A stretch of DNA of 64,000 bases, from the NCBI GenBank assembly GCA_051362555.1, contig CM120641.1, forward strand, positions 18,600,001 to 18,664,000. The letters run 5' to 3'. The notes under the pieces are model-generated. The model did no database searches. It was not told the origin of the DNA and worked only from the letters and a program-made list of their open reading frames with translations. Each line of letters opens with the position of its first letter. Positions within the stretch are counted from its first letter, which is position 1. A program made the position numbers and the translations under genes. Positions 21,801 to 64,000 of the stretch are shown piece by piece. Source of the stretch: Lingula anatina (lineage: Eukaryota > Animalia > Brachiopoda).

Positions 21801-24800
21801 AAATGATACATGTAACATAAAAGACTCCGTTCATATGGAAAGTCTATTTTCTAAAAATCTATTTTCTATTTGCGGTATCTTGTAATCACAGTCCCTGTGC
21901 CCTGAATATCCCGAGAATTAATTACAGCTTTGGAAGTAACTGGCTCGCGCCGCCAGTAATTACGCCGCGGGATATTCAGGGCACAGGGACCGTGATTACA
22001 AGATACCGTGAATAGAAAATAGATTTTTAGAAAATAGACTTGCAATGTGAACGGGGCCTAGGACCTGTGTTCTCCATCGTCCAAGTTATGGGCAATGTGG
22101 CCCCAAGGGGCCCTAGAATCTCCTTACCATGGCCACAGATTGATTTTTCACCTGAAATTCACAGATATGTAGCTAGTTTATTCTTGATGTTTTTTTTTTT
22201 TTTTTTTTTTTTTAATGTCCAGCAAGAATTTTTACATGGGATTTATTTCATCACTCAGATGGTCCTTGCAAAGAATAGGCCCTACACATGCATCATTAAG
22301 GTATTGCACAAGCTGCATGTAAAAATTACTTCTGTATTATCTTGCATGCAGCTTGTCAATTCACTCATAATGTTTCACCTACGGTGACTTGTCTTCCATC
22401 TATCACATAACTCGCTTCTAAATTAACAGTTGCCAGGGTGTCTGGGGTTTAACACCTGCTTTTCATTACATCCCTTTTAATTATCACCTTCTACGTAATC
22501 CTATGAAATAGTCCCGCAAATCATAAACTCTGATAATAATCTTAAATAGAGACAAAAAAAGAAGCTCAAGATACAGTTATGCAACAAATTTTTTCTTTGT
22601 TTTTGTTTTTTATAGATTTTGTGTATTTTGTTAATGAAAATATGTAACTGACTTTGTCAAGAGCCAAGTGTTACATGTATGAGGTGTACGAGACATACAC
22701 ATTTATATAAATAATTGGTGATTTAAGTTACATAACCATTATAAAAGAGAAGAGAAAATGTCACTGGTTTTTCCATACAATCCCTATTCTTGCATGTACA
22801 AATTCTGTTAATGACTATTGGCAGGTTCTATTCTATTCTGACTGAAACGTGCATGATTTCATTCCAAAGTCCATAAGTTGACAACTACATTGCTAACAAG
22901 AGATCTCATATTCCAACAATGTTCCAAGGTGCCTGTGAGAGTGGGATCTTTTTGTAACCAGTCCGTCTTGATTCCTAGGGGTGATGAACTGTTTCTGCGG
23001 AGAATTTATCACAGAAAACTGTTTTTAATTTTTAAGCTGAACCTAGTGTGAATGGTACAACTTAGTATTCCATGAAGTAGCAGCTGTTTGCAGTGAGTTA
23101 TCTCCATAAAACAAAAAGCAATAACACTCATTAAAAGATAGTAGTTTCATAATGGAAGTCGCTTAATCATGTTCCAAAGCTGCAGTATCTCTGGGTGTTC
23201 TTTTCCCTGGGGGAGGAGACAACAAACACTGAGTGACGGAGATTGTGAACACAAACAGAATTTGCTGGAAAATCACTTTGGTTTTTTGTGTGACAATGAC
23301 ATAATTCTATTCCCCATGGTGGTACAACTCCTATAGCAGGTCACCATCGATATGGCACAGGTACCATTTTATGAGATATCATACAAATTCAATCTTAGTT
23401 TTTTCAGATAAATGTACAATAAATAAACTAAGTAATTTAAATTAAATTGAGCAACAAAAATATTTTGTAATTGTTTCCACAATACTGTATGGTGGCTTTG
23501 CAGTGCAAATTACATTGTAACCTGTCAGTGAACTTGCAGTAGTATAAAAAGCTGTGTGTAAGCAAAACCATTTAAGTGCACAATAAACTAAAATATATTA
23601 TAATATATAGTATAATACTATAATATTATTTAAACAGGTGCCATACCAGATATGTAAAACTCTTTAGGTTTCAATTACTAAGTTTTCAAGCCTTTTTTTT
23701 TTGTTTTTGTTTAGGTTACTAAATGGTGTGATGGCTATTAAAGATTGCACTGTGCTTACAAACTATGACATGTACATAGGGATTGCTACGAATTTTTTTT
23801 CAATTATTATATTCCACATCATACACACACTTTCAAACTGAACAGAAGTGACCTTGGGGAATCTTAATAGAAAAATAATATGAAATATACCCGGTAGGTC
23901 AAAGAAAATGGAAAAAAAAAGAGTGAAATGTTTCAAACTGCTGGAAAAATCAAATGGCCATTGTTTATTACCAAATTTACAAATACATATTTTTCAAATG
24001 TATCCTAGCTATCCACGATTTCCAAATCTACCTTGAAAAAATAAGTTTTATCCTACTTTTGAATCTCAGCTCAACCCCACTCTGCATTTTAGGTCAATGT
24101 TTTACACTATTTTAATTAAATTATTTAGTTCTAAATGTTTCTTGTAACATTTAGACGACCATGTCTCCCCTTCAGCAGAAAAAATAACATCAGGTACATT
24201 TATTTGAGAAGGCTGTAGCACTTTAAGGTCTGCATTAGGAAAGAGAAGTAGCTTTGCTTTGACATAAGAAAATGACTTTGGGACAATTGCAGATAGTGTA
24301 CCTTAAGACACTGTACTAGATTTTCATAACTATCTCAAAAGGCATTCACCAGAAAAGACCTCATCAATGTTTCCACATTCTGTTGGTTATGACGTGAATA
24401 ACAAACATTCACATCTCCATCTGTTTAACAAAACAGCTTACAGCCTTGAAAAGGGACTTTCAGGCATGAACTCATCTTATACTTTGCTTATTTTCAGGGA
24501 AACATGATGCAAGAGCTGAGAAGACATGAAAACTGCAAATGGATACCCATAAAATCTTCTCATTGCATACATTACAAAAAGAAAAGAAGATAATGCATTC
24601 CATTCTTCTATTCATGTATCAAGTTTCCGGACAGGTGGCAAATTCTGAAACTGAATTATGCTTGGTTAAGAAACCAATTTTTCTTATAAAAAATATCTCA
24701 GCTCAAAGTCCACAACAAGGTCAAGACTCAGAATGTTTTAACCACAAAAATCAACAGTTAAAGCAGTGTTAGATCACTATCAGCGCAAAGTGGACCAGAT

Positions 24801-27800
24801 GAATGATTCCATGATCACAATGGACTCCAACTACACTAATTTAACAACCAGCGAGGAAGATTTTCAAAGAAGATCACTTGAAGCCATTATCATCGGAACC
24901 ATATTCCTCCTAGCCATTATTCTTTGCTCAATCTTGGGTAACATCTCTGTCATTGTAGCAGTATGGACATATCCAAAATTATATGAGCAGAAGGCAAGTA
25001 TCTTCATAGTAAACCTCAGCATAACAGACTTGTGCAACGCCATATTTGTTATGATATGGACATGCTGTGCCCTGATCACAGACGGATGGCCATTTGGAAT
25101 CATGTGGTGCCGATTCCAATGTGCCTTTAACTACTGGTTGATCATTGTGTCAATGCAGACTTTGGCCTGGATAAGTGTTGACCGCTATCACTCCATAGCT
25201 CATCCTCTCCAATATGCAGACTATCTGACAACGAAGAAAATCATGATGATGCTCAGTTTTAGTTGGATTCTAGGACTCATCTTTGCCTTTGTGCCCGTGT
25301 TTCTAGACTGGGTGCACTATGACTATTGGGAGGTTGTTTGTGCTATTAACTGGCACTACCAACAAGATATGGCTGTATTTTATGTTGTCATAGCATTTAT
25401 TGTGTGTTTTCTCATCCCCGCTGTAATAATGGTTGGATGTTACAGCTGCATAGCCTATGCAGCCAACAAGTGTGCACGGAGAATTGAAGCTTGTGTTGTG
25501 CCACGTTCTCAGTCGATTGCCAGCGACTCCAACAGCACTGGCACCTCACAGACAACTAAGCTCATTCAAAGCAATACGAAGGTAATCAAGAGTCTCATAA
25601 TTGTTGTGGCTGTCTTTTTTGTATGCATGACCCCATTTTGTGTAACAAAACTTTTGAAAGTTGTATTCTATAACAATATTGTCCCTGGCTGGCTGAATGC
25701 TTTTTCCACTTGGGTGCAGTTTCTGAGCAGTGCCTCCAATCCTTTCATATATGGTATATTTAGAAAGGATTTCCGTATGGCCTTTAGAAGGCAGATTCGC
25801 TTTTTAAACTGTGGATTGTTTAATGTAGAACTTAGTTCTGAGTCCACATAGCTGTACATGCCCATAGGGCCATATTGCAATACAAAAAGCAGGTTTTATT
25901 AGAAGTGTAAAGAGTCTTATCATTAGAGTTTTATAATAGTAAAGGCCTAAAAAACCATTTTGTATTCTTATTTAGACTTTTGCTGTGCACTTTGATTTCT
26001 ATTATATCCTATTGATTTCTATATAATGGAAGACAGCAGATGTAAATTACATGGAAAGTCATAGTTAAAAGTAAAATGAGTTATGTTTGATGTAATGAAT
26101 GTGCAGTTATTTCTTGTAAATTTCTGAAGTCAGAAAATTTTTTGTAAGTGTTTATTGGTAATAAGTTTAAGTATAAGAAAAAGGGAAAAGATGTTGGCAA
26201 TTTTTTAAAAATATTAACTCTTATAAAAAATAGGGCATTCAAGTCTTGTGAGTAAAAAAACTTTGTCTTGTAGTCATGGTAGTAATTACTATGTTTCTCT
26301 ATCATTATCACTGTTATTGTTCATATGAATATTCTTGTAATTTATTTATTAATCTATTTATCCATTTGTTTTGCTGTAGTATGTGGATTCAGAGGTTGGC
26401 GAACTCACCATACAACAAACTAATTATTTTGGGCTTGTAACTATTTTTAAGCAAGTCTTTACAGTATTATTTCACAGTATTAATTGACATACGTCTGACA
26501 AAAACAAAGCTGTGTTTACATTAAATGTCAACCAGAAACAGTCTTGCTGACATCAGCAGGCAAACAGAATTCCTAGGGTCCCAAATCATTTTCAGAATTT
26601 CTAAACCCATGTTGGACTATCAGGTCATCTGATCAGTTGTAGAGCTTCAGGTTTAAATTAAGTCAGTTGTGAACACGGCTAGAGTATATTTTTCACGTGG
26701 CAATTAAGTAAGACCAGTGAATATTAGGTTATAAATACTTTGTCTATCCATATTTACATCAATTTGTAATATATATCCGTCACACTATATATTTATATAC
26801 ATTTAATGTAAATAAATGTCATACTGTCTATAAGATATCTGTATGTCATACATACAAAATGTTTTTATCAAGACCTTTAAATGTCATTTGTAATGCTGCC
26901 TTAGGAACTTCAGTTCATTCAAATAAATGTGGAAACATTTCTAAAACATGAGCAAAAGCTATCTATGTAGAAATCCAGAAGAAATACTACTGTAAAAAAA
27001 TCTCAAGAGCATTTTCTCTCACAAAAACTTCAAATGTCTACACAGAGCATAGACATTCTCTTTGCCAGATTCTCTGAACACCATATGGCCATGTTCATTC
27101 TTATCCACATGTCACATTAAAGGAATTGATGAACTTTAAACATGATTTTGTTGTCAACCTTACACCATCCATGATGTAAATAAAAATCAGTAAGACAGAG
27201 GTTATGGCTATAGTGATGTAACCAGATTACTGGGTGTAGCATAAAAACAACCTATCATCTGGTCTGGATCTGATTTAAAACAAGTATCAATTTTGGCAAA
27301 CTCTGGGAACTCTCCAATCTCTCAAATAAAGTTATATATAAGAAAGCACTCAATTAATGATTCGCCACCAAAACCTAATTGATTCCAAGTTAACTTATTC
27401 TTGAAATTAAATCAAAATTAGAACCTGCCCCCCCCCCCCCCCCCATTCTGTTATATATTACCTTTAACAAGGAATTTTTGTTAGATTTTGGTAGGGATCT
27501 ACTAATTAATAAATAATGGAGATTGAGCTGCAGAGGTCTGTGCTTTGATTGTTTTTCTAGTTTTTAGTTTAAATTACATACTTATCAAAATATGTCTTTT
27601 TGCTTTCTGCTAATTTCCTGTCAAAAAAAGAACTTTTTCCCTAGAAATACATTTTCCCTAGAAAAATAAAATCAGAATCACATCAACTGGCTGAGAGGAA
27701 ACAATGGCAGGAAATCCCATTACTTTCATCCTTTTTCTTATCAGATGAAATATATTTTTAATTAAATAAATATTAAGTACTTTCAAAAAAAAAAGACAAA

Positions 27801-30800
27801 ACACACACACACAAAAGGGGTAAGGGTTTGTTCAAATCATATTATGTGATGATTTGCACAAGAAGATTTACAGGGTCATCACTGTAAATAAAACACAAAC
27901 TGAAAGCTTGATATAAAGGACTATTCCAATTTTTTTCCTCATCTATTTCATAGGTAATCAAGCATCTAATTCAGGATAGGATTTTTTTTCTCCAGTTACA
28001 AAACTGCAAATCATGTTACCAAATTAATATGTTTTCATTAAGAGTCTGCAGCTCAAAAATAGTGACTCAACTTGTAGTTATGCTATTGTGTCAGGAGAGA
28101 ATGGAGAATGTGCTTGGATGTGACACATTATCTCTTGAAGTGGGATTGCAAAGAAAGGTCATGTATCTGGCATATAATTATATGACATGGTCAAATTGGA
28201 ATAGTGGCCTAAAAGAGATCAACTTATGTCACGTGATGACCTTAATGCTATACAGAAGGCTTTCTTCATACTAGATAGCATCTGTAAAACAAAAGTATTT
28301 GACTTTAGCACAGGATTATTCCTAGACTTCACATTTAATATAATGATAACACTTGCCTCTCTTTTGTCCACTTGGAACCCCTCTCCTTTGTATTTATACA
28401 TTGCTTTGACCTGTGGCAGCTTCTTCTCTTCTATTGACTCTTGAATCACTTCTTTCTCTACTATTTCCTCAACCTCTATTTCATATGGAATGTCCACAAT
28501 TTCTTCAACTGTTTCTCCTTCTTTGTCAACAACTTCTTCTTCTGTGTTCTCACTGAATTTCTTTTCTAACACTTCTGGGGGTGGCTATATGTAATTAAAA
28601 AAGAAAAAAAACATAAAAATCAAAGTTCTTGGTCATTACTATCAGTTAACAATAGAGTAAAAGTGAGTCACCTATGCCATAATATAATATAATAATATAA
28701 TATAATAAATTGGCCCATACAGCTCTGAGTGCATAGAACAGGTCAGCAGTAACTATGTGAGAGAGAATAAGAAAGAATAGCATGACATAATCTTACCAAA
28801 CTCAGGTGACCAGCTTTAGTCATTAGGTTGGCAAGCTCATTTAATCTCTGTATATCATGCTGATAAGCTTGAATCTCTTCCTCCAGGTGGGTGTGCCTCA
28901 CTAACAGGGCCTGAAAAGGTCAAAATGGTAAAAACAAAGAATGAGGATATTTCAAACCAAAGCAATAAAATTTACACACTGTGCATGTGTATGGTTTCTC
29001 CAAATTTAAGTTTTGGGTCCATTCTTCAGTAAATTTCTTTTACTGCATCTAATTGTAAATGATAGAATCATGACCTAATCATCAACTCGTTTCATTTAGC
29101 TTTACCTTTGCACTCAGTTCATCCTTGCCATAGTCATCACTGCAAACTAAAGGGATCTTCTCCCTCATCCATGACTCTGCTTCATTGGCATCAGCATAGT
29201 ACTAGAACAAAGCGGACCAGTCTGTTAAGACCATGTATGGGATAGATTATGCTTACTGGTTTAGTCTAGTTAAGATATATGACTTTTTGTTACACCAAAA
29301 TAGGAATTTAGAAAATAAGAAATGATGAAATCTTTTATAATTTTTGAAAAATAATTTGATAAAATTTTCCAGTATAAGATGTTTCCTCGTCCTGCTAGAG
29401 TGCCAAACATGACAAGTAGTACTTTAAAAGTGTAGAAATATTGTCTGGTATATAACAACCAATAGAATAGCCAATGTAAACAATGGAAGCCTGATGATTC
29501 ACTACATAATGTGCAAAATACGCATAATAGAGTTGACAGCACTGTCCTACATACTCTATGTGACTCTTCAGCATCTTCCAATCTTGTCCTTCGGGATTTG
29601 GCCAGTTCTTGGAGTCTCGTCCACTTGTCCTTGAGACTGTCTACTCGCAGCTTGATGTCAGTGCTGGCATAGTGGCGGGTGTCAATCAATTGCTGTCCGA
29701 GCTGACACACCTGATGACACCTGGGATGTCTGGCCTGGAGTTCTGCTTCTAGAGCCTGAGAAACAAATGAATATATGAATAGATAAATAATTAAACAGAG
29801 CATCCTCAAAGTCTTTCAGCAAAGATTTATCATATGAAACCATATTTTGATGACAGTTCTGGACTGCGCTTCTTCATTCAGTAGAGCCATGTATAAAATT
29901 GGAACTAGAAGGTTATAATTACATAGGCTGAAAAAAAAAATTGAAAGAAATTGACAGCAAAGCATATAGACAATTTGAGCAAAAAAACAAAACAAATAAT
30001 GTGCAGATTTTTAGTTATCAGACAAAGAACAGTCATGTACTTTTCACAATCTTCAAGGTAGCAGTATCTGGTGACTGAATTCATGGTGCATGCAGAGAAC
30101 AAGAAAACAAAATATTGTGCAGACTTTTTTGAAAAAAAATATTGCTACATAGACATAACCCAAAACATATTTCATAATTTTAAAATTAACAGCAAGGAAG
30201 AAAAAAATACCAGCTTCAGAACAGTAATGTCTCCTAATTGACCAAACAGGGCAGATGTGTTCTCAGTCTGTGCAGTTAGGCACTAGCCTGAGACAACTGC
30301 CCACCTACTGGGACAATGGCCTAATAAATAATCTAAAATGTATTATAACATTAGTCCACTATTCAATCTTGATTGTCAGAAGAGCTAGTATCAGGAATGT
30401 CATTTGTGAGGGGAAGGGGGGGGGGGATTAAACAATGTGTAATTATCCCAGACAAGTTCAAAAACAGAGTTAAAAACAAAAAGTTAAAAAGCCTGAAATT
30501 AAAAAAAACTTGAAAAATCACATCCCTGTAGTAGCCAAAAAAAAAAAAAACCTTTTAGCACAGCCTGTGTTCCTTACCTCATGTTTCTTGAGAAGACCTA
30601 TGACAGCCCTGAGATCTCGGCCTGTCACCATGGACTTGGCCTGCCTTTGTTTCTCCAGCACCCAGCTCTCCTCCTCTTCACTGTCCTGGATGAACTTGTA
30701 AAACTTCAGTGATTCCTGGAGACGTTCACCTCTGATAGTGCTTAGCTTCTGGAGGCTAGATTGAAAAAAAATATTTCACTAGTATTTTACAAATTTTTTG

Positions 30801-48851: not shown

Positions 48852-51800
48852 ATGTCTGTTGTTGACGACAATGTCACTACTATTTTGAAGAGGTAAGGAT
48901 AATGCTGCTCTTTTGATTTTCCCAACTTGTATGCTAAGCTCACAAATCTTGGTATTTAAAGTAGCTGTAATATTTTAGCAAAGTTGAGATTTCACTGGAA
49001 AAAAAGGGATGTAAGTTATCTTAAGCACGTGGATACATTTGTACAGTGTATGCATTATATCTAATGAAATCTTACTTTTTGTTATGTTATATTTGCATTT
49101 TACATTTTTTGGAGAGGGGGATTTCTTTTATTGTTAGAGTTAAGAAGTCCTTTATTGGTCCCTGTTTTTGTTTTCAGATTATCTGCTACAGAAGATGGAC
49201 CAGATGTAAATCATTCAAATGAAGAAGGCACCAAGAAAGATTTCATGTTTAAAGTAGGTGTGGCATGAATATACATTGTCCACATTTTCATTTTCCTTTG
49301 GTGAATAGCTGCAAACTTTGTGTTAAAATTTCAGTTGTACCCGACTTAAAATATGGTTATTGTTTTTGTATATATTCTAAATTCCAATAAAGGCATGAAG
49401 TACATCTATGAGTAACTCAAAAAAAGTTTGTTTCGTTTTATTAATGAACAAATATTATAGAGTTAAATGAAAAGTGATTGTTGCAGACTTGATGAGTCTG
49501 TGACAGCAAGTATTTTATTTTGTCACTTGCTTTCAGGACTTCACTTTGGAGAGAGCATGCAGTAGTCATCCACTGCAGACCATCCTTGGAGAAAACATCA
49601 CAAAACATGTGCCATTTATCTTTGCTTATAGGAAAGGTGTAGTTGAGGTATGGGTTTTGATATTGAGGATGCATATATATTCAACCAGAGTTGTCTAACT
49701 AAAGTTTGTTTAGTCTACTATATCTTCATATTATTATTATTTATTTATTTTACAAGATGAGAAAGCTTCAATATCACATGTTGTTAAAATACCTGTTGCA
49801 ATCATTTTGTGCTTTAGACAAGGGTCAGGGATTTTGAAAGAAGTGCCCTTCTTGCCAGAAAAAAGTCCACTTTGAATCAAAATTTGAAGTACATAAGTGC
49901 TATATGCCATTTTTTTTTTTTTCAGTTTCTTTCAACAAAAGGAAGTAAAAAGTTCCGCCTTTTTTAGAAAAAGAACCCCCTTTGAAAATTCTGGCTATAG
50001 GCCTTACAAGAGTATATTTATCTTTTTTCTTTTGTTTATTTTGTAGCTTTCTGAAAAAGAAGATGAAAGCTTTCGTAGAGATAACACTGCAGACAGCAGC
50101 TCTGAGCAGCTAGGAGGATCACCACTGAAACTGCAGGAGTTTTCCTCTGGTGTAACAATTCCAAACAACTCTAGAAAACCTTCTTCGAGTGCCCCCTTCA
50201 TGAAACCTATATCCACCAATGATGCAAGGTAACAGAAATGGAGACAAAGAAAATAGAAAGGTTACATTTTAGCTAAATTAATTGATGGTGCCAAATTTAG
50301 GAAATTGTTTGATATTAATGATGACAATCAAATTAAAAAAAACTTTCAATGAAGTTGTCACATGCATGGTTTTATTAAGTTTTTACATTATTTGATGACA
50401 TTGATGCATTACAGAATAATTCAAATGACAATCATGTAGTTTATTTCATCCAACAAGGACTATTTTTTAAATACACAAACCTCTACAACACGTAATTATT
50501 TCAATTTTACTACTGTGTGTAAAATCAATAATTTTAGATACCTGGTTTCTCAGTACACATTTCTGTGCAATCCATTTATGACTGCCACCCGTACAGACCT
50601 GCTACCTCTGTGGGTTTACTGTGACAGACAGGAACATGGAGACATGCTTTTTCTTGGAACACGGCAGCTTTCTGGCAAGAAGAGAGGAAATGTCTTGCAT
50701 ATGGTGACATCTAGAGGTACTTTTAGGAATCTGTGCTGGGGGATGATTTATAAAGTCATGCTAGTACATACGTGTGTTTATATTTATATTATATAATGTT
50801 ATATTATGGAAAACTGAAATGTTTCATTGTTTGTGCCAGTTTTGTTATAAATTATGTTGAATAATAAATAAATTGTCAGCATGGCACTATCTTTTTATAT
50901 GAATGTACATTCAATAAGAAGATTCAATGTCTCATCAGCTTCAAATCTGCCTTTATAAAAGTAAATTTAATTGTACAGTATGTAAATTTATTTTGTTAAC
51001 TGATTTAAAAGAATGTCATTATAAAAGAGGTGCTTAATCAAACACAAAAATGTGTTCCACTTGATTGCTTTTAGTGAGCATCACTGACATAAGTATAAAA
51101 TTATTGTTGTTATTCATTTACATCTTTGATTGATAATATTTTGCAAAAAAGATGTACATTAACATATATAATATAATAGCAAGGAATGATTCATACTTCA
51201 TAATGATCAAACAGAGCAAAATGTAAATTTCCCGTAGCTGTGTATGTATTTAGTGGTTTCAGGAAGACTTATGGTTTACTTTCAGGGCCAGTCCAAAGCA
51301 TTCAAGATGTCCCCTCACACATGAGAACTTTGAAGAAACCCCAGCAGATTGGCAATGTATGTAGTGGATATTGATATACTGTTGTCCCATCACTTAAAAG
51401 TAAACTTTTACAGACTTTTCTATATTTTATTCTCAGAGTAAAGGCAGGTTGCTTTTTATAAAAGCATTCTGATATGCAGGTACATAATATAAAGCAAAGT
51501 AAGTTGGTCTATGAAAAATTTTAGGACACTTTCATCTTGTTTATATTACAAGATTAGTTGAATAGTTGCCTTTCCTATTATTATGTGCAGGCCACAGTGA
51601 AAGTGTCAGTACATTATGACATCTTTGGGTCCATGAATAAGGACGAGAGTAGTGCAGGGTCATCTTTTCAAGGGTCACTAATGGTCAGTTCCAGTTGGGA
51701 CAGAGTGACCACCCTCTTGGAGGTCCCTCCTGTAGAGGCAGTCACAGCCCTAGTAAGATACATACATGTTACCATAATTTTCTGTTGTATTATACAGTGC

Positions 51801-51957
51801 TTATATACAGTTAATTTATCTGTATACATTGTTAGTGATAAGATTGCTAAAATTAATGTTTTAGCAATAGCAGAGTATTAAAGCACCAACAAAGACACTG
51901 GCTGTATATATCATGGTTCTCGTCTGGAATCACCATTTCAGTCACGTGGATCTGGCT

Positions 51958-51989
<32 letters not shown>

Positions 51990-53003
51990 CAGAGCCCTAC
52001 ACCACTGCCCAGCATATTAAAATTGTGTGTGGTTGACTCATACATAATGTCTACTTTAATCTGGCTGATTTTAGGGTCAGTTAGTGTTTCTATAAAAACA
52101 CAAAAAATTATCTTTGGCAATGATTAAGTCAAGAAGAGGCTTACCACCATGTGGCTGTATATTGTTTGTTATATTATTCACTAGGATATCCAAGTGGCTG
52201 CTGGAGATGTGGGGAGTGCAGTATACAGCATGTTCAGAGAGCTGTCCATTCTTCAGGTGAGGTTCTTTAAAATTCCAGCTTCTTGGATCATTGTGTATGA
52301 ATAAGAAATAAGTTATATATGTGTTGAAAAGACATTGAAAAAGTAAAATCAAAGTGAAATATGGTTTGCAAATCAGATTAATTTTTTTATGCATCAGGCA
52401 TTCAGGTTATGTATAAATTTTGCATAAATTGAACAATAGTATTATTGGACTTGTATTTTGCTTACAAGAGGTGTACCCTTGCCTGTATTTTGATACACTT
52501 CAATTTGTTTCTTGCCTCAATGCACACAATACATACATGGCTGGGGTAGCACTAACACTTGCCAATCAAGCCAAATGCTAAGACTGACTTAAATTGGCTT
52601 AATTTGACTTGTTTTATTCTAATTTAAATCATTTAGAGAATAAAGTGATGAAAAAGTAGTGGTTTTAGTGAAAAAATTTGCTCACACAAAAGTTACAATA
52701 GGCGGGTCATCCTGTGTATGCCATATGTTAAGCTTCCATAATCTCACTGTTGTATTTAACTGACAGTTTGTAACTCATCCTGTAAACGTTTTTTCCAGGG
52801 CTTTGCCTCCGGTCTAAAGGATGGATGTGTGAGCTGGGCTGTGGAGAGCTGCTCAGGAAAATCTCTGCTGGAAGAAGTGCAGACACTCACTGAAGGTGAA
52901 ATTTGCTGTAGGGCTGTATAGATGATAATGTAGTATGACTTATTGATCAAAAACTACCTACCTTTTTTTATTTATTTTATTTATTTTTTATTTATTTATT
53001 TTA

Positions 53004-53034
<31 letters not shown>

Positions 53035-56000
53035 TTTTTTTTGCATACAGTAAAATCTTTGGGAGTTTGTTTTTGCATCAATGATTTCAGAATAACTTAC
53101 AACCTTTTTATCTCCTACTTGGTTTTACTTGAAATCTTTAAAGTAGTTTCTAAATATTGTAATTGCACAATTTGGAATTTGTCTATGTATTTTCAAGATT
53201 TAAAGCAAGGAGATGCTTTATGGCAGCCTACAAAGGACACCAAAAAGGATTCAACTGCAGTTTGTAAGAATGAAGATGAAAGTGATGTCACTTCTCCAGT
53301 GAAAAGTCTGGCACTGGCTGACAGGGTGGACCTAGACTTCACAGAGAAACTCTGGAACATTTTGATTGGTGGGTGTACCACAATAATTTAAAGATTTATA
53401 TGCACTCAAGTATTTACACAGACTGCCGTTATGCACACAAATACAATCCCAGCTAAATGATATTGTGATATGCTCATTTTTATGCTTTGAGAAGAGAAAA
53501 CTATATCAAGTCATTTATTTTACTTATAAAATAATTTAAGGGAAATTAATTAATATAATTTCAGATTGTTCTTCTTATGATGAATTGGTCAAGTGCTTTC
53601 AGTATGTCTTACGCATTTTAAAAAATGGAGAACTTCAGCCCATGGTGAGTAATCCCACTAATAATTTGTGACAATATTTTACAAATTGTGTGACTAAGAG
53701 ATGATATGGAAGCATCACATTTTTCACAGATATTTCTTTTAAATGACATACATGTCCCTATAACTGTCAAACCCTAACCTAATTATGTAATGTAATCATT
53801 AATATAATAACCAGGCTATTAAGTTGTCAATCTCTCATATGAAAATGGATGGATCCAGTCAAATATACTTTTTGATTTGATAAATGGCTTAAGTTATCTT
53901 TGGGCAAAAAATAAACATTTTTACTGCCTGTACACAGGTGCATGCCAGTAACCACACACAGCTAGCAGAACTGGTCCGGGCCTCCTACTATAACAAACTG
54001 GTGATGCCAGACCTGGCCGGACTGCTGCCACTGGAGCTTTTGGTGGAGATAGGTGTTGAGAAACTAAGAAGAGACTATAGTCATGCATTCATTGGTGAGT
54101 TAGAGTGAGAGGAGGTTGGGGGGAGAGGGTTAGTATGGGACTGGTGGAATCGAATTCTTGTCAGTCAGTAGGTGCATTTTTCCTGTCAGTCAAATGAAAG
54201 ACAGGCGTTATAAAAAAAATTTGAAAAATAAAGTCTTTGATTAATAACCACTTCATAACAGTGGGTTTTGTTTAAAAAAATGATGGAATAAATTACGTCA
54301 ATTTGACATTTTGTTTTCAGGAAAAAAGTATTGAAAACACCCATTCCTGGGGTATTTCACTAATGATTTGCCCCAAATCAAACAACTGAAAATGTTTATA
54401 CAAACGCTTAAAACACAAGGATCTGTCCATTTTAATTTCACTGCCAATTTTCCTAAAAGTATGGTGATCCAGGTCACCTTGAAGACATTGTCTGGCACTG
54501 ACTGTTTAGTGAATTATGATCTGTAGGGAAGAGTTTTTCAGATGTGTCTGCTATTTACTTTCATATATCAGACAAAGATTTGGTGACAGCTGATCAGCTG
54601 ACATATTTCCTGGAGAAGAACCTGGACCTCCATGAGAAGCTTAGTCGACTTGAAAAGCTGCACAATGTGCTGGAGCTGGTTGTGATGATGAAGATGTTCC
54701 TCAACATACCTCAAATTACACTCAGCTCAGCCGCAAGGTGGGCAACTTCATAAGTTATACTTTCTGACATGTATAGGCCTGGCAAGAGTGGCTACTGATA
54801 AATAATACTGGTTACAGAAAATTTGTTTTGGAAGTGGGCTCCTTTGAAAACCTTTTTATTTATTTATTTTTGTATGAAATTTATTATAAATTTCCAAGTT
54901 GTGTACATTGTGTAAGTTACTTAAGTGAAGAGTTAATAGCTTGAAGTTTAATAAGATAAAAGTAGCATATACACAACACAAAATGCTTTATGTTGCCTTT
55001 TTTTTTTTCATTTTCTCTATAAAACTGTTGTCAGTATCATTTTACTTTAAAAAGTGAATATATGGCCAATTAAAAAATTTTAATAAAACTCATAACTAAG
55101 ATGTTGCTGATATATAAACTTTACTTCCAGACAAGCCATGAATCATTACCAAATCCACAATGTTGATCCAGCCCATGTCTTCCACATCCCTGTTGCTACC
55201 TCAGCTGTCAGAGGAGTATTTGATACGTAAGTGTTTCTGTTTTGGTATATAACAAGGCTTTGCCTTTGTTTTACAAGAGTTCTGATTTTAGAGTTTCAAG
55301 AGTTCTGAGTTTAGTTTTGAGTATTTGATAATGTAGCATGCCTGAAAAAACAACCGTCTACATCAGGGGTGGATTGAGGCTGTCTTCTGGGTCTTTCCGA
55401 AGGTATGCCATCTCTGGATCCGCCTCTGTACATGGGTGAAAGTTTTCAGGATTTTTCCTCAATTTCAGGATTTTCAGTCTTCATTTCAATAATTTGGAAT
55501 TTTACCTGGCTGGATAAGCTTATTACATAGAACATCTCTAGAGTGTGATATTGGAGTATAGTTTTAAAGGTGTTTTATGGGTTAACTAAATCTCTTTCTT
55601 CTTGGTATGTATCTCAAATAATACACTGCCACCCTCTTGCGATATATGCGATGAACACCTCTCACTGATGCTCAAGGTGTTCTGGCACATATTGCTTGGG
55701 GGACAGTGTACTGTCTCACACATAATGTATTTCTTTTGAACTTTGAACCCAGTCAGTGGGCCTCAGATAATCCTCTGGTGTTATGTGGAACATATCCTCA
55801 GTGTAGGTATGAAGAAATTCAAATTTGGGACGTTGCCTTGGCTCCAGTGACCAACACTTGAGAAGCTCTTTATATATTTCTTGGGGGAATTCATAGTGCT
55901 CATTGTGGGGAATAGGCAGGTGGTATCCTTCTTGTACTTTCTGCAATACTTCCATCTCGGTCATGCCTAAAGAATGTTTGCATGCTTTTTGACCAATATA

Positions 56001-59000
56001 AGTATGTTAACTTAAACAGTGACAGGCAATTCAGAAAAAGATGAGAAAATCTGTTATTTAGATTATAATTTCATTCGCCAAAAAGAACAGATTCATGCTG
56101 TTGTTACTGTATTGTATGAGCTCAACTGAGGTTCAGAAATTCATGATAATGAAAAGTATTGCAGACCAAATTTCTACAAATTTACATTTACAATAAAGAG
56201 AAGAAAATTTACTCTGATCTCTTAATCATGCAAATCAAATTTGAATTTTAGAAGACAGCACTTGCATAGCCACATTAACAAAGTTAACGGAGGTGAGTGA
56301 AATAATTCCAAAATGCACCCCTGTATATTGTTATATTATCTTTATGTTATTGTTATGCTTACCTTCATATGGTAGTTTCCCCAAAGTTGCCATTTCAACC
56401 ATAACAACAGCAAAGGACCAGACATCAGACATTGGAGATATTCCCTTCTTACCATACTTGATAACCTCGGGTGCAGCCCACCGGATTGGAGGAGTGAAGT
56501 CTTTTAAGTGAAATGTATCAAAGTTACCTGTACTTCTCTGCAGATAGGCTCATATTACTGCAGACATAAGCTAAATTATGACAGTAGTTTACATGGGTGT
56601 GTGGTGTGTGGGTAGAAGTATGCACAGGTACATATGTGCATTTTAATTACTGTATTTTTATTAAAATTATTGTATTTTAACTATCTCATTAAAACAAGTG
56701 GGCAAAGTACCTTTGGCAGCTTTTTTCCATGGACACAATTCCACTTTGACTTTAAAGTTATCTGGATCAGATGTTAGGATAAATACATTGGTAGACTTCA
56801 AATAACCATGAGCAAAATGTATTTCTTCAAGGTATGCCATTCCTGCAGCAATCTATAAAAAGAAAGTAAAAAATCTGATATTAGACCTTTACCATCTGTC
56901 CTAGTAAAATTCTAATATCACGAAACAATTGTTGCATGAAATATTATGATTAAGTCAAGGATATGATCAAAATGTTATCATTTAGGAGAAATTGATGAGT
57001 CTGTCAGTTCAGTCAGTGAAATTTGTAATATTCAGTCCCCAAACCTGAGAGGCTATTTGTAACAGAAGTCTCAGTCCTAAGGTTTCCCCCATATCTTCAG
57101 CCATAAAGTCAAGCAAAGACCCTTGAGGGAAATGTTCTGTGGCCACAAAGTACGGCTCTCCCTCCAGGCAGGTCAACATGGTGGCCAGGTGTGGGTGTTG
57201 AAAGGAGGCGAGTTCAGTAGCTTGACTATGCAGTTGTTGTTCATCCACAGAGTTAATGTTGAGGACATTGATGGTAGCAGGCATGCCATAAACAGTCCCT
57301 GTAAAATTGAGCTCAGTCAGTAACAGTTTGTGTGAATTTGAAAGTGAAAGTTCAAGAATGATTCTGTTCAAATTAATCAATTGTGGTTTCAAAGTACCTA
57401 CCTACCCACACCTCTCTGCAGTCTGTTTTATGAAGGAGTTCAGTATAGTCCACAGCATGTCTGTCCAGTAGTAACTTTGGTCTCAAGTTTGTATTTTCAT
57501 AAACATCCAAATCTAATGCCTGTGACATCTAAAGAAAAATGAAATTATGTATGAAAACTTGAAGCCCCTGTTGGGTTTCTGCTCTTGTTCCACTTTGCTG
57601 TATTGACACTGTGTACTAGTTACATCTGTCACAAAGTTGAGCGAGAAACTATAAGATATTTTCAAGTTTAACAAGTACATGTAACATTGTATTAATCAGT
57701 GTACATTATGTCATCAGTTCTCTGAATGTTTTAGTTTCATTGTGCAATTTTGTGCTACTTTTACATTTATTGTGGTCTTTATTTATTTATTTTTTTTTTA
57801 TTGAGCATATACAAACAAAATACAACTGTGGTCTTTATAACTAACCCGTTTCAGTGAAGCCTCTTGCATTTCCTTTACTGTTTCCAAGTTGAACATGTGA
57901 ATGTAGTCCTCATCCTGGTCTTCTTCATCCTCCTCCTTAGCATTTATTGACCCTTTGTTGCCATCTTCAACATTAGCATAGTTTCCATGTTGTGCCTTTT
58001 CCAGTGGCTCAGTGTTTTCATAGTCAGGAACTTTAGAATCTTCTGTTGTACAAGTAACACCAGTCAACATTCCTGTGAGGTATTTATGGTCAAATTGTGT
58101 TGAATCTCCAGTGTCTGAGTTCATCATTGCTACAACTGATGCGTAGAAGTTGGACTCAAGGTTTTCTGCCAAGTGCTTCATCTCGGAAGATTTATTTACA
58201 ATGGCTTGGTATTCTTCTGCAAAATCTGTAGTAACATGTTGGAGATGTTTTCGAAGATTGAGGATTTCTTCTGGTGAACCTTTGACCACAGTGGCATTTG
58301 CATCCTTTATGGCAGCTTCAGTCTTCTGAATTTGATCAACGATTTGTTTCACAGTGGCTGTAAGTGTCTCTTTTCCAGTGCTCGTTTCTTTGTCAGCCAT
58401 CATCAATAAATTTTGTGCAATCTTGTCAATAGTGTCACATAGTTTCTGTTTCCTGGTCATCATGTCACATTTGATCTGTGATGTCTTTTCAGAAAGGAGG
58501 TTTTCTTCTCCAGAAATGTCTTTTTGTAAGTCTTGAAGTTGTATAAGGTCATCTTGCATTTTTTGCAGTTGACTTTTGATGGTCTTAGAAGCGGCTTTGG
58601 TGGCAGAGAGAAGGCTGACTGTTTGGTGACCTTGGTGTTCTTCATCTTGACATTGTATGCACAGCAGTAGTTCGTCGTCTTTGCAAACATTTATAATTGT
58701 TTTTTTGTGTTTTTGACACAATGGCTTGTAAATTTCGTCCTTTGCTGCTGCTTTATCAAAAGTGGGCTTCGGGGGCACTTTTGGTGGCACATTTATTTTT
58801 TTTAGAGTATGCTTCTGCATTATTTTGTGTTGGTGAATTGTTTGAGAGCAGTTGTTACAAAGCTCACTGTGGCACTGTTCACAGGTGATCTCTGCAGCAT
58901 TAATTTCACAGTTGTTGCACTTTGTACTTGCAGCCATCTCAGCCTTGCTTGTAATGTATTCTGGAAAAGATATAAGTTGTCATAAGTTCATAATATTACT

Positions 59001-60639
59001 GCTAAATATATGTTTAAATGTACCATTGATTTTTATGGTATTATAAATTAAATATGATATATAAAATGGAATATATTTCTATTAGTTGTTTACAATGTAT
59101 TTATTGTGAAATATTAATCTCATACAAACAGCTGTTATCCCTTTAATTTGTTTAACAGACTGAAAGAACATATGCTTTTCAGAATTTTCTTCTCCTATTT
59201 CTGTACGTCATACTAGAATTTTACCATGCCACACAGTGAACTCCCCCATCTCAACTTATATTTCATGAAACTCCTACATAATTAAGTTGACTGCAGACAG
59301 AATTTGAGTTTCCAGTTACCCTATTTCAGTTGATAATAAATTTAAAATACTACCATTTTTATAAGTAATGCGCAAGGGTTGTCAAATGAGAATTGAGTAT
59401 TGAAGCTGTTTGAAACCTAGAGTGACATGTAATGTTTGAAACTTATAGTAACCTTACAGCTTTGTATGTATATAACATTGTAAAATTAACAGGCCAATAT
59501 ATCTGAACAAGACCTCAGATTTGGCTCTACGTGTAACTCTGCAGAAAAGAAAGGATTTTATGCCTATTTAGACATTTCTCTAGCCAAATATGGGAAGTGA
59601 AAGTAATATTTACTTAAAGTTACATTCCATGGGGTTTTCCCGCCAAAATTAATATCAAGAGATTCTCTGCACTCCTAGTAAGTGATTTAGGGACCATTCA
59701 CACAGATATTTGTATTGATCTATCTCCCTGGGGAGTCTCACTTAATTGCTATCAACGTAACCGGCTTAAATATCTGTCATGCCTAGTAAAGCTCTTTGAG
59801 GGTAATTGTCTTTTACCCCATAGCTGATTCCGTAGGCATGACAGACATTTAAGCCGGTTAGATGATAGCTATTTAGTGGGAACCCAGTCTTAGTTATCCC
59901 TCCTAGACCAAAGTTTTTCACGAGGTAAAAATGCTGTTTCCAGCATTACTTACATAACACGTACATGTTGTTTATCCAATGTATTTTTCTTTCACTGCAC
60001 TTTCATTGCCATGGTGCTGTTTCATGCAACCAGAGGTAAGCAGGTGCCTTTTTTGCTGTTATCAGTATTAACCTAATTTTTCAGCATTCAGCCTCATACT
60101 TGGCAAGTGGAAATGATAAGCAATGAGCAGGACGCAGAGGTATCAAGTATTTATCACATAAGCTGTAAACCTCCTGTGGATGAAATGTATTCAGAGCCCG
60201 GTAAGTGCTTGTGTTTATATTTCAGTATCCCTACGAGGTGAAGGTTGTTAAACAACAATAAAAGTAGGTTATTGGTTCACATAAAGTGATTGGGTGTTCC
60301 TTATGGAATGAGGAAGTTCTTTTTTTTTTTTTTTTTCAAGAAAGGGTTTTGTTTCTATTGGAATTGTAAACATTTTCACTTTAAAGAAATACCAAGGGTA
60401 AATATTTTATTAAATAGAATTTTTAGTGATATATTTGATTACAATTAAAACAAAATTGGAGTGGGAATGTTTGAGCAACAGCAACATTTTGCACTATTTT
60501 CACGGTCAGTTTTTTGTGTTTAATTGCTACAAACCATGACCGTAGGAACTTCTATATTTCAGACACAGAGACCTCTTCAGACCAACATTTATTATACTAC
60601 TTCACACGGATGGATTCAAGTGTTCATATTTGGGAATGA
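48852..60639 (+). CDS. ZWILCH: Protein zwilch homolog (RZZ kinetochore complex), ~617 aa
   Basis: 16 phase-consistent exons: 48852-48892, 49178-49253, 49537-49647, 50047-50228, 50538-50716, 51286-51356, 51591-51752, 52185-52256, 52799-52895, 53198-53368, 53565-53644, 53938-54094, 54572-54737, 55131-55226, 60085-60200, 60563-60639 (1854 nt including TGA). Motifs recognisable against human Zwilch as I recall it: ARYLVSQY..LLPLWVYCD, DLDFTEKLW, SYDELVKCF..GELQP, LVEIGVEKLRRDY, LEKLHNVLEL, HVFHIPV, PHTWQVEM. The start codon is the least certain part. Confidence 0.9.
52963..53042. repeat. (TTTA)n / poly-T low-complexity tract
   Basis: Directly visible. Confidence 0.9.
55716..58937 (-). CDS. B-box/B-box/coiled-coil protein fused to a Src-family-derived pseudokinase domain, ~676 aa, nested antisense in a ZWILCH intron
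   Basis: Exons 57846-58937, 57402-57528, 57045-57298, 56711-56852, 56363-56527 (acceptor less certain) and 55716-55966 join in frame (2031 nt). Two Cys/His B-box patterns, then a heptad-rich coiled coil. Kinase landmarks: EVWVG, QHPHL, GSLLDF, QIAAGMAYLE, PIRWAAPE, SDVWSF, G.LPYEGM, CWSLEPRQRPKFEFL. Upstream acceptor at 58960 implies a non-coding first exon. Confidence 0.85.
59690..59890. mobile_element. MITE family B copy (right end eroded), hairpin core
   Basis: Inverted arms TAACCGGCTTAAATATCTGTCATGCCTA / TAGGCATGACAGACATTTAAGCCGGTTA; shares GATCTATC..GGGGAGTCTCACT with 61925-62149. Confidence 0.65.
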
Positions 60640-61924
60640 TCAACAAGGAAACAGACTATTTATTAGGAAGTGCAAAATGTACATAATAATTATAATTATT
60701 GCTACTTTTAAAAGAAGAGGATAGTACGTTGAAGGGTTATAATTTAACTTTAATTTGTGTTAAATTTTATTTGAAAATTTAATTGAACGTAAATGTGTGA
60801 CAACATTTTGTAAAATTCACACAAATTTTTTTTTCAAATACAAACAAACATCTTGAAAAAATACTGTAGATATTTTATTGCCAAGTGGATGCTTTTTACT
60901 AAAAATTCTAAAATGCTCAAAGCAGTATATTGACCTAAAACAAAGATTATGCTTAGTGAATCCAGGTATATTATGTATGTGTCCTTTATACAGGCATCCC
61001 TTAGTCCTGTGACTGTATTGCTTTTTTTTTTTTTTTTTTTTTTTTTTTGTACAGCATCTTATACAGTGAAGTTCACATATGGTGCTAGCAAAGCCTGTGT
61101 ATTTGTATTTGGTAGTGTTTCAAATGTTGAATACTATAACAGTTGTCAGTATAATTTGAATAAGCTTATTGCAAATTATTTTGTTCTACATGTATGTACA
61201 TACCTTTTGCATATAGCTGGCTGGAGATACTTATTATAAAACTAGAATTCTCTTGAATCATTTAAAGTCACATTCTAAAATAGGAACCACCCTTCTTAAT
61301 ATTGCCATAAATTGGTACTATCATGTTGGATTTTCACTTATGATTTATTTCTGAATCTCAGGCCAGTGACCTTGATTGACAGCATTCACTTCTAGGGGAA
61401 TTCCAACCCATGGTTAGATCCTAGTCCACATCTTTTTGCAAGCCAGACAGAACCTCTATCTTATGTAGTCATTGTACTCTAAGCCTGATCACAGTTGACC
61501 AGTTACAAACAACAATGGTAAATCTCACATTCTTATTCTTTCATGACCAATCAACAGCTCTGTATTAGCAGCCATATCTTCTGAAATGTTGTTTAGTATA
61601 CCCTTAGTTTCAGTGCTATATGTTAAGTGTACATCATTTTAGGGGTATGAATGGTAAAAAAGTGTGCACAACATTCATTCAAACTTCATTCTTGACTGCA
61701 TGTAGGCAAAATTGCTTTTAAAAAATTAAAATTTAATGCTAACTGTAATAACAAATAATTAAGTCACTGACGTAACAATGCATTTACAAAAAAAAAAAAT
61801 TAGAAAAATCATTAAAGCGATTTTAACTTTAGTGACCAGAGAGTATTGAAATAAATTATGACTTCTCAGTGTGGCTCTTTTATTTTCTTCTTGTCACTTT
61901 TTAAGTTCTTCATTACATGTCTAA

Positions 61925-62149
61925 AACCCCATTTCCATAGATTTTAGATCGATCTATCCCTGTGGGGAGTCTCACTAGATTACTGTCAGCTTAGCCAGCT
62001 TAATCGTCTGTCCCGACTACTGAAAGCTGTAAGGGGGTAATTAACTATGGTGCGCGCTTGACTGACTGCAATTTAGCGTGAACCCCCAGGGAGTTAGGTC
62101 GATCTAAATCTTAATCTCTGGATCGATCTAAATCTCTGGGAATACACCC
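61925..62149. mobile_element. MITE family B copy
   Basis: Inverted termini containing TTTAGATCGATC / GATCGATCTAAA; related to 59690-59890; flanked by TAA and TTA. Confidence 0.65.
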
Positions 62150-62152
62150 TTA

Positions 62153-62361
62153 GGGACAGTTCATATGAAAAATCTATTTTCTAAAAAACTACTTCCTATT
62201 CGCGGTATCTTGTGATCACGGTCTGTGCCCTGAATAGCCCGCGGCGTAATTACTGGCAGCACGACCCAGTTACTTCCAAAGCTGTAATTAATTCTCAGCT
62301 GCGCTTGGAGTGATCACAAGATACCACGAATAGAAAATAGATTTTTCATATGAACGGTCCC
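62153..62361. mobile_element. Fold-back MITE family A, copy 3
   Basis: TIR GGGACAGTTCATATGAAAAATCTATTTTCT / AGAAAATAGATTTTTCATATGAACGGTCCC; core is the reverse complement of that in 21823-22058. Confidence 0.85.
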
Positions 62362-62364
62362 GTA

Positions 62365-62622
62365 GGCTTCATTCACATGCAATGTCTATTTTCTAAATTC
62401 TATTTTCTATTTGCGGTATGTCTTATGATCACGGTCTGTGCCCTGAATATCCCGCCGCGTAATTACTGGCAGCGCGTCCCAGTTACTATAAGTTACTATA
62501 ACTAACTGGCTCGCGCTGCCAGTAATTACGCGGCGGGATATTCAGGGCACAGACAGTGATCATAAGATACCGCGAATAGAAAATAGATTTTTAGAAAATA
62601 GACATTCCATGTGAACAAAGCC
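62365..62622. mobile_element. Fold-back MITE family A, copy 4
   Basis: Near-identical to 15511-15767, including the central GTTACTATAA duplication. Confidence 0.9.
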
Positions 62623-63329
62623 TTAAATGTATATATAAGTATTCAGTGTGAAACAGTTTAAATTAAACCTGAAATTTAAATAAGTTGTTCAGATAAATAC
62701 AATATACAATTGAAATGTTTATGCATAACAAAGTTTCAATAATTTATAACTCCACACTTCAGAAAAATATAATAGCATGTGTACTGTACATTATAGCTAC
62801 AGTTTACTCATACACTCAGTGCATGCCTCACAAACCTTTCTGACCTCTGCTCTCATATGTTTGAATGGCATAAAGCATTGAATATCATTTAAGTAAATTG
62901 CTAGAATTAATTTATATTTGAAAAGTAGAAACACATCGCCACTGATAAGAACATAAACAATCATGAAAATTAAAGACTTAGTTTGTATGTGTGTTGGGGT
63001 GGGACATACTGCCTAAACTTTTAACCCCTTTGAACACAGTATTTTGTTAATTTAATACCCAATATTATTACACCAGGGTACATATAGAGTCTTGAGCAGC
63101 CCAGCTCAAAAACTAATCTGACAATTCTGACAAATGACGCTGCCGATCTACCCTCTGCCAGGGTCTCTGATTGATTTTTCACCAGATATTCACAGATATG
63201 TGTCTGGTAAAAATGATGGGACTTTTTGGCAGTGTGTAAGAGAAAAGTGCACATATTAAAATATGCCACCCTGCTACGGTACTGCTGATCCATGCAACGG
63301 GTTGGACACAGAGCAGCAACAGAGGGGCC

Positions 63330-63546
63330 CATAAAAGAAAAATCACGTGACCCGTTTGACCAATCAATAGCCAAAGTACCACAGCATGCGGCAGCCTTTG
63401 AAGTTTGATCTTCATCTCTGCACATAATCCGCGATGTGCCAAATTGACATAGTGCGCGTTCTGTCAAACCATTTCGTTCTGGAGCGGCAAAATTATGTAG
63501 CAGTTACAGTAGTAAGTCTATGATCTGGACATCGGGAAAGGTAAGG
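63330..63546 (+). promoter_or_regulatory. Probable promoter and first exon of an unidentified downstream gene
   Basis: CpG-rich patch with TCACGTGAC E-box/CLEAR-like motif (63343-63351), CCAAT (63360-63364) and strong donor AAG|gtaagg at 63540. Confidence 0.45.
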
Positions 63547-64000
63547 AAAATATTTAACGATCAACCTCGAGAAAGCACATACCATTCGCGACAATGCGTC
63601 CACTTTTTACGCCAGCCCGTTTAGTAACTTTGAGATAATGGTTGATAAAACATTGTGGCAGAGGGGACTAATGAAATCATTTCATAGCAATCCAAGTTAG
63701 TCTGCGAAGTAGAAAGTTGGTGTGAATTGCAAAGTCATGTAGTCATCTATGGATTAGCTTAACTTTGAACTGGCGTTGAGTGAATTAATTTGCTTTTACT
63801 TGCTTACACGAGTAGAAATGGCGCTTCTAGGCCATTGTTCTGATGCAGTTTCTCAGAAAATGTCTGACTTGGACTGCTTTGCACTGCCTTGCTTTGAGAG
63901 CTAAATGATTCCATTTTCAAGCACAATGGGAAAGTATGATGTGATAATGTTAACAGGCTCCCGTCAATTAGCTCTCTTCTTATAGTGTAGCCTGATTGGC

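Follow-up and report, generated by a model that had tools for sequence, protein, structure and literature searches.

A spliced gene of Lingula anatina joining a B-box/coiled-coil arm to a pseudokinase: a candidate phosphotyrosine scaffold

The 64,000-nucleotide stretch of Lingula anatina DNA analysed here (contig CM120641.1 of assembly GCA_051362555.1, positions 18,600,001 to 18,664,000 of the forward strand; hereafter, the window) carries on its minus strand, between 58937 and 55716, a gene in which a RING-less B-box/coiled-coil arm of the TRIM type is fused to a kinase domain lacking its catalytic residues. The fusion is real and is confirmed by RNA reads as a single spliced gene. Its product is proposed to be a dimeric phosphotyrosine scaffold, similar in its working to PEAK1/Pragmin and assembled independently of them, a reading given somewhat better than even odds (a probability of about 0.55).

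Gene model and transcript evidence

A sequence-only reading of the window had proposed six exons joined in frame into a protein of 676 residues. The six coding exons stand, with introns that are all GT..AG and a joined minus-strand frame without a stop codon:

57846..58937, minus strand: coding exon 1, residues 1-364, with B-box 1, the proline motif, B-box 2, the coiled coil and most of the linker; read depth in runs X4 and X7
ending at 58961, minus strand: acceptor AG before coding exon 1
57402..57528, minus strand: exon 2, residues 365-406, with the end of the linker and the start of the N-lobe, its glycine-rich loop lost; joints 57846/57528 and 57401/57297
57045..57298, minus strand: exon 3, with beta3 (Lys replaced by Asn417), alphaC (Glu replaced by Gln432), hinge and alphaE; RNA joints and Pfam
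56711..56852, minus strand: exon 4, with the catalytic loop changed from HRD to HGY (residues 506-508), no DFG and a shortened activation loop
56363..56500, minus strand: exon 5, with the P+1 loop, APE and alphaF; acceptor 56500 taken from joint 56711/56500; Pfam
55716..55966, minus strand: exon 6 to the stop, with alphaG to alphaI, the Csk-docking equivalents and tail Tyr651

Raw RNA reads from four of nine Lingula anatina runs (X1, X2, X4 and X7, tissue unknown) were mapped on 54000-64000. The junction between the B-box exon and the first kinase exon, 57846/57528, which the sequence-only reading had singled out for checking in RNA, is spanned in X4 (six reads with four starts) and in X7 (ten reads with five starts), with zero reads in X1 and X2, where depth on the gene is almost nil. 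The joints 57401/57297 (five reads in X4, 19 in X7), 57045/56852 (three and nine) and 56711/56500 (ten and 11) were likewise recovered, so that reads span four of the five introns and the gene's joints occur in two of the four runs. The remaining intron, 55967-56362, is absent among the joints listed, 18 further ones aside, and is drawn from its GT..AG frame and the RefSeq model. All of this evidence consists of junction-spanning reads, no read covering the full transcript having been seen; the first mates of X4 fall on the exons as plus strand, matching a stranded library of minus-strand RNA. Since reads cross from the B-box exon into the kinase exons, these belong to one spliced gene, and a reading of two separate genes is excluded.

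The length did not survive the RNA evidence. Because reads join 56711 to 56500, the model with an exon-5 acceptor at 56527, in which the frame also stays open, was dropped, and the corrected protein has 667 residues. It equals in length RefSeq XP_013385541.2, from which it differs at nine of 667 residues and which the National Center for Biotechnology Information (NCBI) names ‘tyrosine-protein kinase Fer isoform X2 [Lingula anatina]’. The 38-residue N-terminal extension of RefSeq isoform X1, which starts M-L, was searched for in the window and not found. Upstream of coding exon 1, read depth and variants in all four runs mark 59010-59343 as a candidate exon of the 5' untranslated region. The 3' untranslated region in X4 (55002-55715, minus strand) seems to extend several hundred bases beyond the stop, towards the host-gene exon ending at 55226 (described below), and 55227-55716 holds no canonical AATAAA.

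Arm, linker and kinase domain

Beyond the exons, the following features of the protein were placed on the window:

58809..58919, minus strand: B-box type 1, residues 7-43, six Cys and two His by pattern; Pfam ANCHR-like B-box, E 1.2e-5, below the cut-off
58767..58784, minus strand: PxxPxK motif, residues 52-57, between the B-boxes; a near match to the PxLPxK of the Crk N-terminal SH3 (N-SH3)
58626..58718, minus strand: B-box type 2, residues 74-104; Pfam zf-B_box, E 4.8e-14, and pattern
58119..58625, minus strand: coiled-coil hairpin, about residues 105-273, predicted to form an antiparallel homodimer
57484..58118, minus strand: acidic linker, predicted disordered, residues 274-379, split by intron 1; Y306, Y320 and Y374 in YxN, Y345 in YxxM
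55820-55794, minus strand: E634/F635/D642, Csk-docking equivalents in exon 6
55769-55767, minus strand: tail Tyr651, equivalent to the Src tail tyrosine

The sequence-only reading had described an arm of B-box 1, B-box 2 and coiled coil without RING, SH3, SH2 or Gly2, and Pfam, residue patterns and the Ala at residue 2 all agree with it. A Pfam scan of the whole protein returned four families, among them zf-B_box (E 2.3e-13), the ANCHR-like B-box (23.6 bits, cut-off 27) and PK_Tyr_Ser-Thr (E 4.5e-44), and none of RING, SH2, SH3 or FCH. RING is also absent from both RefSeq isoforms, and no RING-like pattern occurs in the 5 kb upstream (58961-64000, minus strand). The frame starts M-A, so residue 2 offers no Gly2 myristoylation site. 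In the Atlas, residues 1-275 lie nearest to B-box clusters found most often in molluscs (score 0.94, with 195 features shared), with RING-bearing mollusc B-box clusters among the neighbours at lower score. The arm thereby shares B-box 1, B-box 2 and coiled coil in TRIM order, without RING, with TRIM29, TRIM44 and mollusc B-box proteins (PMC2533329). It differs from such proteins in its C-terminal domain, here a pseudokinase, in a B-box spacer of 30 residues against 13-20 in human TRIMs, and in a distance from B-box 2 to the C-terminal domain of about 280 residues against 170-220.

The resemblance to mollusc clusters, RING-bearing ones included, invites another explanation, in which the arm would heterodimerise with TRIM ligases that bear a RING, and the pseudokinase would act as a substrate receptor or a decoy for pathogen effectors, routing its partners to ubiquitylation. 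It has been suggested that TRIMs lacking a RING control the orthodox ones through hetero-interaction (PMC2533329), and a B-box family expanded in bivalves is annotated with interferon-beta production (PMC8382680). The argument is one of family resemblance, however; neither a paralogue nor a Src gene was found elsewhere in the window, and the YxN/YxxM linker is left unexplained. Such a TRIM-partner role is rather unlikely, and for the immune link that the sequence-only reading had entertained, nothing was found in support.

Helices are predicted over about residues 101-273 (predicted local distance difference test, pLDDT, about 60-79). TRIM coiled coils have been solved as antiparallel dimers. 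Two copies of residues 68-278 gave a homodimer score of 0.62, against 0.00 for the best of three controls, with at least 94% contact agreement between runs and pLDDT of at least 82; the predicted contacts (134-203, 127-210 and 120-229) define an antiparallel register. Of 29 solved eukaryotic homodimers, 17 reach the same mark (seven of 16 from animals); of 30 single chains, none does. The coiled coil is thus predicted to form an antiparallel homodimer, in keeping with the dimer that the sequence-only reading had supposed.

That reading had passed over the linker with its tyrosine motifs, the PxxPxK motif, the retained Src tail and the nesting of the gene in ZWILCH. The linker falls below pLDDT 50 over residues 274-349 and is acidic (26 Asp/Glu in the 113 residues 273-385). 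Four of its five tyrosines lie in motifs, three in YxN (306, 320 and 374) and one in YxxM (345), the latter being the consensus for PI3K p85 sites. When the linker was shuffled 200,000 times, three YxN arose in 0.3% of shuffles and four motif tyrosines in 0.035% (P=0.00035); in 50,000 shuffles of the whole protein, three YxN fell inside 70 residues in 0.26% (P=0.0026). The consensus for the Grb2 SH2 is pYxNx and that for the CrkII N-SH3 is PxLPxK (PMC10279719); the Lingula PxVPxK may bind a Crk-type SH3.

The kinase domain had been called a pseudokinase, and alignment to Yes bears this out. Mapped through the Yes row, the Gly-loop glycines of Src (G274, G276 and G279) become H397, T399 and R402, the beta3 Lys K295 becomes N417, the alphaC Glu E310 becomes Q432 and the catalytic Asp D386 becomes Y508. 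DFG is absent, in a region that aligns ambiguously, and the activation loop is about eight residues shorter and devoid of tyrosine, the equivalent of Src Y416 being lost. The His and Asn of the catalytic loop, the gatekeeper Thr and the APE Glu are retained, which, with the ambiguity around DFG, is what could be said for an atypical but active kinase; the joint replacement of beta3 Lys, alphaC Glu, catalytic Asp and all three Gly-loop glycines makes that highly improbable. From these substitutions we infer that the domain cannot catalyse and probably does not bind ATP; its fold would be kept as a binding surface.

A fold built on an alignment of 30 mostly Src-type rows reached pLDDT mostly of 78-98 over residues 381-650, with one block of ten at 59 and the B-box region unmodelled (pLDDT <50); single-sequence folding was uninformative (mean pLDDT 33.7). 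Against Yes, the N-lobe is 22% identical, the activation segment 14% and the segments of the C-lobe 38-41%. Among RNA variants of kinase exons 2-5, eight of the ten listed are synonymous, where transitions would lead one to expect 35% (P=0.0046, pN/pS 0.13), a pattern that points to purifying selection and a maintained pseudokinase.

These measures bear on whether the gene is simply a young chimera or a decaying Src copy, transcribed and with little function. It is a singleton in all searches, its branch is very long (3.2-3.5 changes per column), read depth is low and the window and RefSeq proteins differ by nine amino acids, all of which would suit such an origin. Against this stand a frame that stays open through five introns although the sequence has diverged by about 65% from Src kinases, losses concentrated at catalytic sites and in the N-lobe while the C-lobe holds its identity, the excess of synonymous variants, and sample-specific expression. 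A transcribed relic is accordingly very unlikely.

The domain is likely derived from Src, as the sequence-only reading had it; sequence matches, fold matches and tail residues uphold that origin, and the support from kinase-domain trees is weak. In a sequence search of the PDB, the best 60 matches were headed by an engineered tandem EGFR chain and were otherwise all Src-family, and the best single-domain matches among 1.84 billion representatives were named Lck, Fgr, Yes, Src64B and FRK. The best Src-family matches by sequence and structure stand at 32-36% identity. Compared with one chain per family, the fold matched Hck first (Z 33.1, root-mean-square deviation 1.9, 262 aligned residues, 29% identity), followed lower down by Btk (Z 31.0) and Fes (Z 30.4, 26% identity); the structural Src matches are partly circular because the fold model was built on mostly Src-type rows.

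The trees, which were made without identified Fer, Csk, Tec, Syk or PEAK rows, are less clear. FastTree on 157 kinase domains left the Lingula domain as an unplaced long branch. A maximum-likelihood tree of 32 of these rows set it amid Src-type rows, split from Abl and other tyrosine kinases at 79/95, with the TKL outgroup also landing among Src-type rows. In this set, 129 of 1000 bootstrap trees held an exclusive clade of the Lingula domain and Src/Frk, the sister set was wholly Src/Frk in 599, and union with Abl was rejected (approximately unbiased test, p-AU 0.036). After removal of eight rows (two TKL, four long-branch kinases and two Src-type), the exclusive Src/Frk clade rose to 511 of 1000. 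Four kinase-domain introns presumably match vertebrate SRC in position and phase; one further intron of Src is presumably absent. The spelling of the catalytic loop was discarded as evidence of Src origin, since TKL-like rows share a similar loop.

A likely descent from Src does not amount to membership. The Src family (SrcA/SrcB, Frk/Src42A) shares with the protein its best matches and a C-terminal tail tyrosine at Src spacing; Gly2, SH3, SH2, the catalytic residues, the activation-loop tyrosine and the GxM/GxKF motifs are missing, and membership was rejected. The SrcM motifs, GxM in the beta3-alphaC loop and GxKF in the activation loop (PMC8662651), are both replaced in the alignment. The RefSeq label ‘Fer’ was rejected as well. 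Fer and Fes share an N-terminal helical, dimer-forming region and a C-terminal tyrosine-kinase fold with the Lingula protein, which, however, has neither F-BAR (FCH) nor SH2 and a kinase without catalytic residues; in the fold comparison Fes comes after Hck, and it does not appear among the best 60 PDB sequence matches.

The proposed scaffold and its alternatives

PEAK scaffolds combine a dimer module, a pseudokinase, a disordered pYxN for Grb2 and a PxLPxK for CrkII, with dimer-dependent binding (PMC10279719). The parts common to PEAK1/SgK269, Pragmin/PEAK2 and PEAK3, namely a dimer module, a C-terminal pseudokinase and a disordered segment with pYxN and a Crk-type motif, appear to have counterparts in the Lingula protein, where the proline motif takes the variant form PxVPxK. 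The likeness would be one of analogy and not homology. The Lingula protein has B-boxes, its kinase domain finds its best matches in the Src family, and its dimerisation is predicted to rely on a TRIM-type coiled coil, whereas PEAKs use SHED helices flanking the pseudokinase. As for SHED-like flanks in the predicted fold, a helix at residues 351-368 precedes the kinase domain and the C-terminal flank is short and of low confidence. No PEAK structure stands among the listed matches of the sequence and fold searches, a listing that does not exclude one.

In the proposed mechanism, one spliced transcript, seen in two of the four runs, yields a B-box/coiled-coil/linker/pseudokinase protein whose coiled coil would pair two chains antiparallel, so that each dimer would display two linkers. 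The dead kinase domain would stay folded and offer a binding surface. A Src-family or receptor kinase would phosphorylate Y306, Y320 and Y374 as sites of the Grb2 SH2 type and Y345 as one of the PI3K p85 type; the PxxPxK motif would bind an SH3 adaptor, and Grb2-, p85- and Crk-type adaptors would dock with the avidity of a dimer. The output would be localised signalling of the Ras/PI3K/Crk type in particular tissues or states. For PEAKs, Src is the upstream kinase, and PEAK1 and PEAK2 also engage Csk (PMC10279719).

Several points count against such a scaffold. Of seven eukaryotic pairs without an older solved relative, only one reaches the homodimer mark and, TRIM dimers having already been solved, the score shows likeness, not binding. 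The shuffle probabilities are optimistic because the linker bounds and the motifs were picked after the sequence had been viewed, and the proline motif carries Val where Crk prefers Leu. The searches returned no orthologue against which the conservation of the linker motifs could be checked. The variant test covers ten sites from 40 of 160 table rows and is a within-species measure, not dN/dS. Lastly, neither a membrane anchor nor evidence of localisation was found, and phosphorylation and adaptor binding are read from sequence motifs.

The retained tail supports a different emphasis, in which the dead kinase occupies Csk, or lends a phosphorylated tail in trans to an SH2, thereby raising or redirecting Src, with the linker secondary. 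Src E510, Y511, D518 and Y527 correspond to E634, F635, D642 and Y651 with exact spacing, E510, Y511 and D518 being residues that Csk requires (PMC10016382). The Src-type tail signature is confined to 20 of the 157 fetched kinase domains, the Lingula domain and 19 Src/Frk-like rows, under a pattern composed with the Lingula sequence in view, and the tail tyrosine is kept in a protein that has no SH2 of its own. On the other side, the position of Src Y511 is a Phe, and the alphaH-tail segment is identical to Yes at 12 of 32 positions (38%), no better than elsewhere in the C-lobe (segments at 39-41%), which means that the tail may have been kept passively. A Csk decoy or trans-acting Src tail is unlikely as the primary function.

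The two ideas may also be joined. Two dead Src C-lobes in one dimer, with their inhibitory-type tails, would bind Csk and thereby relieve genuine Src kinases, which in turn would phosphorylate the Grb2/PI3K sites of the linker, a positive-feedback switch arising from domain shuffling. Such a Csk sink and phosphotyrosine hub, which we regard as doubtful, would be convergent with Pragmin. The route to Csk would differ, the Lingula protein using a Src-type docking surface, Src's own, where PEAK1/2 use an EPIYA motif.

Distribution, genomic setting and significance

A lineage-specific gene, as had been supposed, agrees with the searches. Word-based searches for an orthologue returned the Lingula record as the only close relative (one of 4600 candidates); further searches of this kind gave ten of 914, the best other match at 25-32% identity, and none of 959. 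Of 25,784 representative hits, the best 150 contain 149 proteins besides the Lingula one, and not one of these matched the fusion over N-terminal arm and kinase alike. One of them, the B-box repeat protein P0019, matched the arm; unnamed and 1789 residues long, it holds about 29 tandem B-box-like repeats resembling B-box 1 of the fusion protein. Pfam on 80 of 160 collected proteins, taken over the best five families each, found a B-box in the Lingula protein only.

That no family with this architecture has been described holds for the literature searched, in which no account of the protein or its architecture was found, subscription journals and bioRxiv supplements lying outside the search; it does not hold as a claim that B-box and kinase are joined nowhere else. 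An Atlas cluster of 64 members (kinase in 100%, B-box in 72%, 425 residues, taxa unrecorded, score 0.96) is possibly an undescribed B-box kinase family, and may be a separate fusion or include kin of the Lingula protein; one Leishmania NEK carries a B-box (PMC1266030). Both bring the two domain types together, in shorter proteins or with a kinase of the Ser/Thr type. The main text of the TRIM survey PMC2533329 contains the word ‘kinase’ zero times, and B-box or accession terms matched nothing in the single supplement file searched for each of PMC4595640, PMC13425148 and PMC8662651. The Lingula genome has been described as showing domain shuffling (PMC4595640). In the sequences and literature searched, the architecture appears undescribed, a singleton so far in one lineage, with a putative function.

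The entire coding region lies antisense within an intron of ZWILCH, an RZZ kinetochore subunit that spans 50440-60600 of the window on the plus strand. The neighbouring features placed are:

55227..60084, plus strand: ZWILCH host-gene intron enclosing the coding region in antisense; joint 55226/60085, GT..AG
62159-62275/62500-62616: inverted arms, 117 nt, 88%
59758-59785/59833-59860: inverted arms, 96%

The joint 55226/60085 is spanned by 19 reads in X1 and 17 in X2, and Pfam Zwilch falls on the exons flanking the intron (E 2.9e-15 upstream, 0.0027 downstream; four of six pieces matched). X1 and X2 carry the host joint and no joints of the nested gene; X4 and X7 express the nested gene with 0-2 reads per host joint, an opposition that four runs are too few to call regulation. 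Inverted-arm repeats at 59709-59860 and 61920-62620, from which many reads run on into unlike sequence, are probably dispersed elements like miniature inverted-repeat transposable elements (MITE-like). Elsewhere in the window, a 369-residue open frame at 24742-25848 (plus strand) encodes a rhodopsin-family G-protein-coupled receptor (Pfam 7tm_1, E 1.6e-47) and lies opposite spectrin-repeat exons at 28222-29815 (minus strand, E 2.9e-13); the receptor frame is possibly a second nested antisense gene.

The public ‘Fer’ annotation is corrected by these findings, which so far concern one gene in one lineage with a putative function. If the scaffold reading is true, a brachiopod would have arrived at the vertebrate PEAK-scaffold design with unrelated components, namely a dimer arm of the TRIM type, a linker bearing SH2 sites and a dead Src domain, and the design of dimer, pseudokinase and phosphotyrosine could evolve twice. 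A natural Src domain without catalysis that yet keeps the Csk face and the tail would, in addition, provide a clean reagent for the non-catalytic functions of Src.

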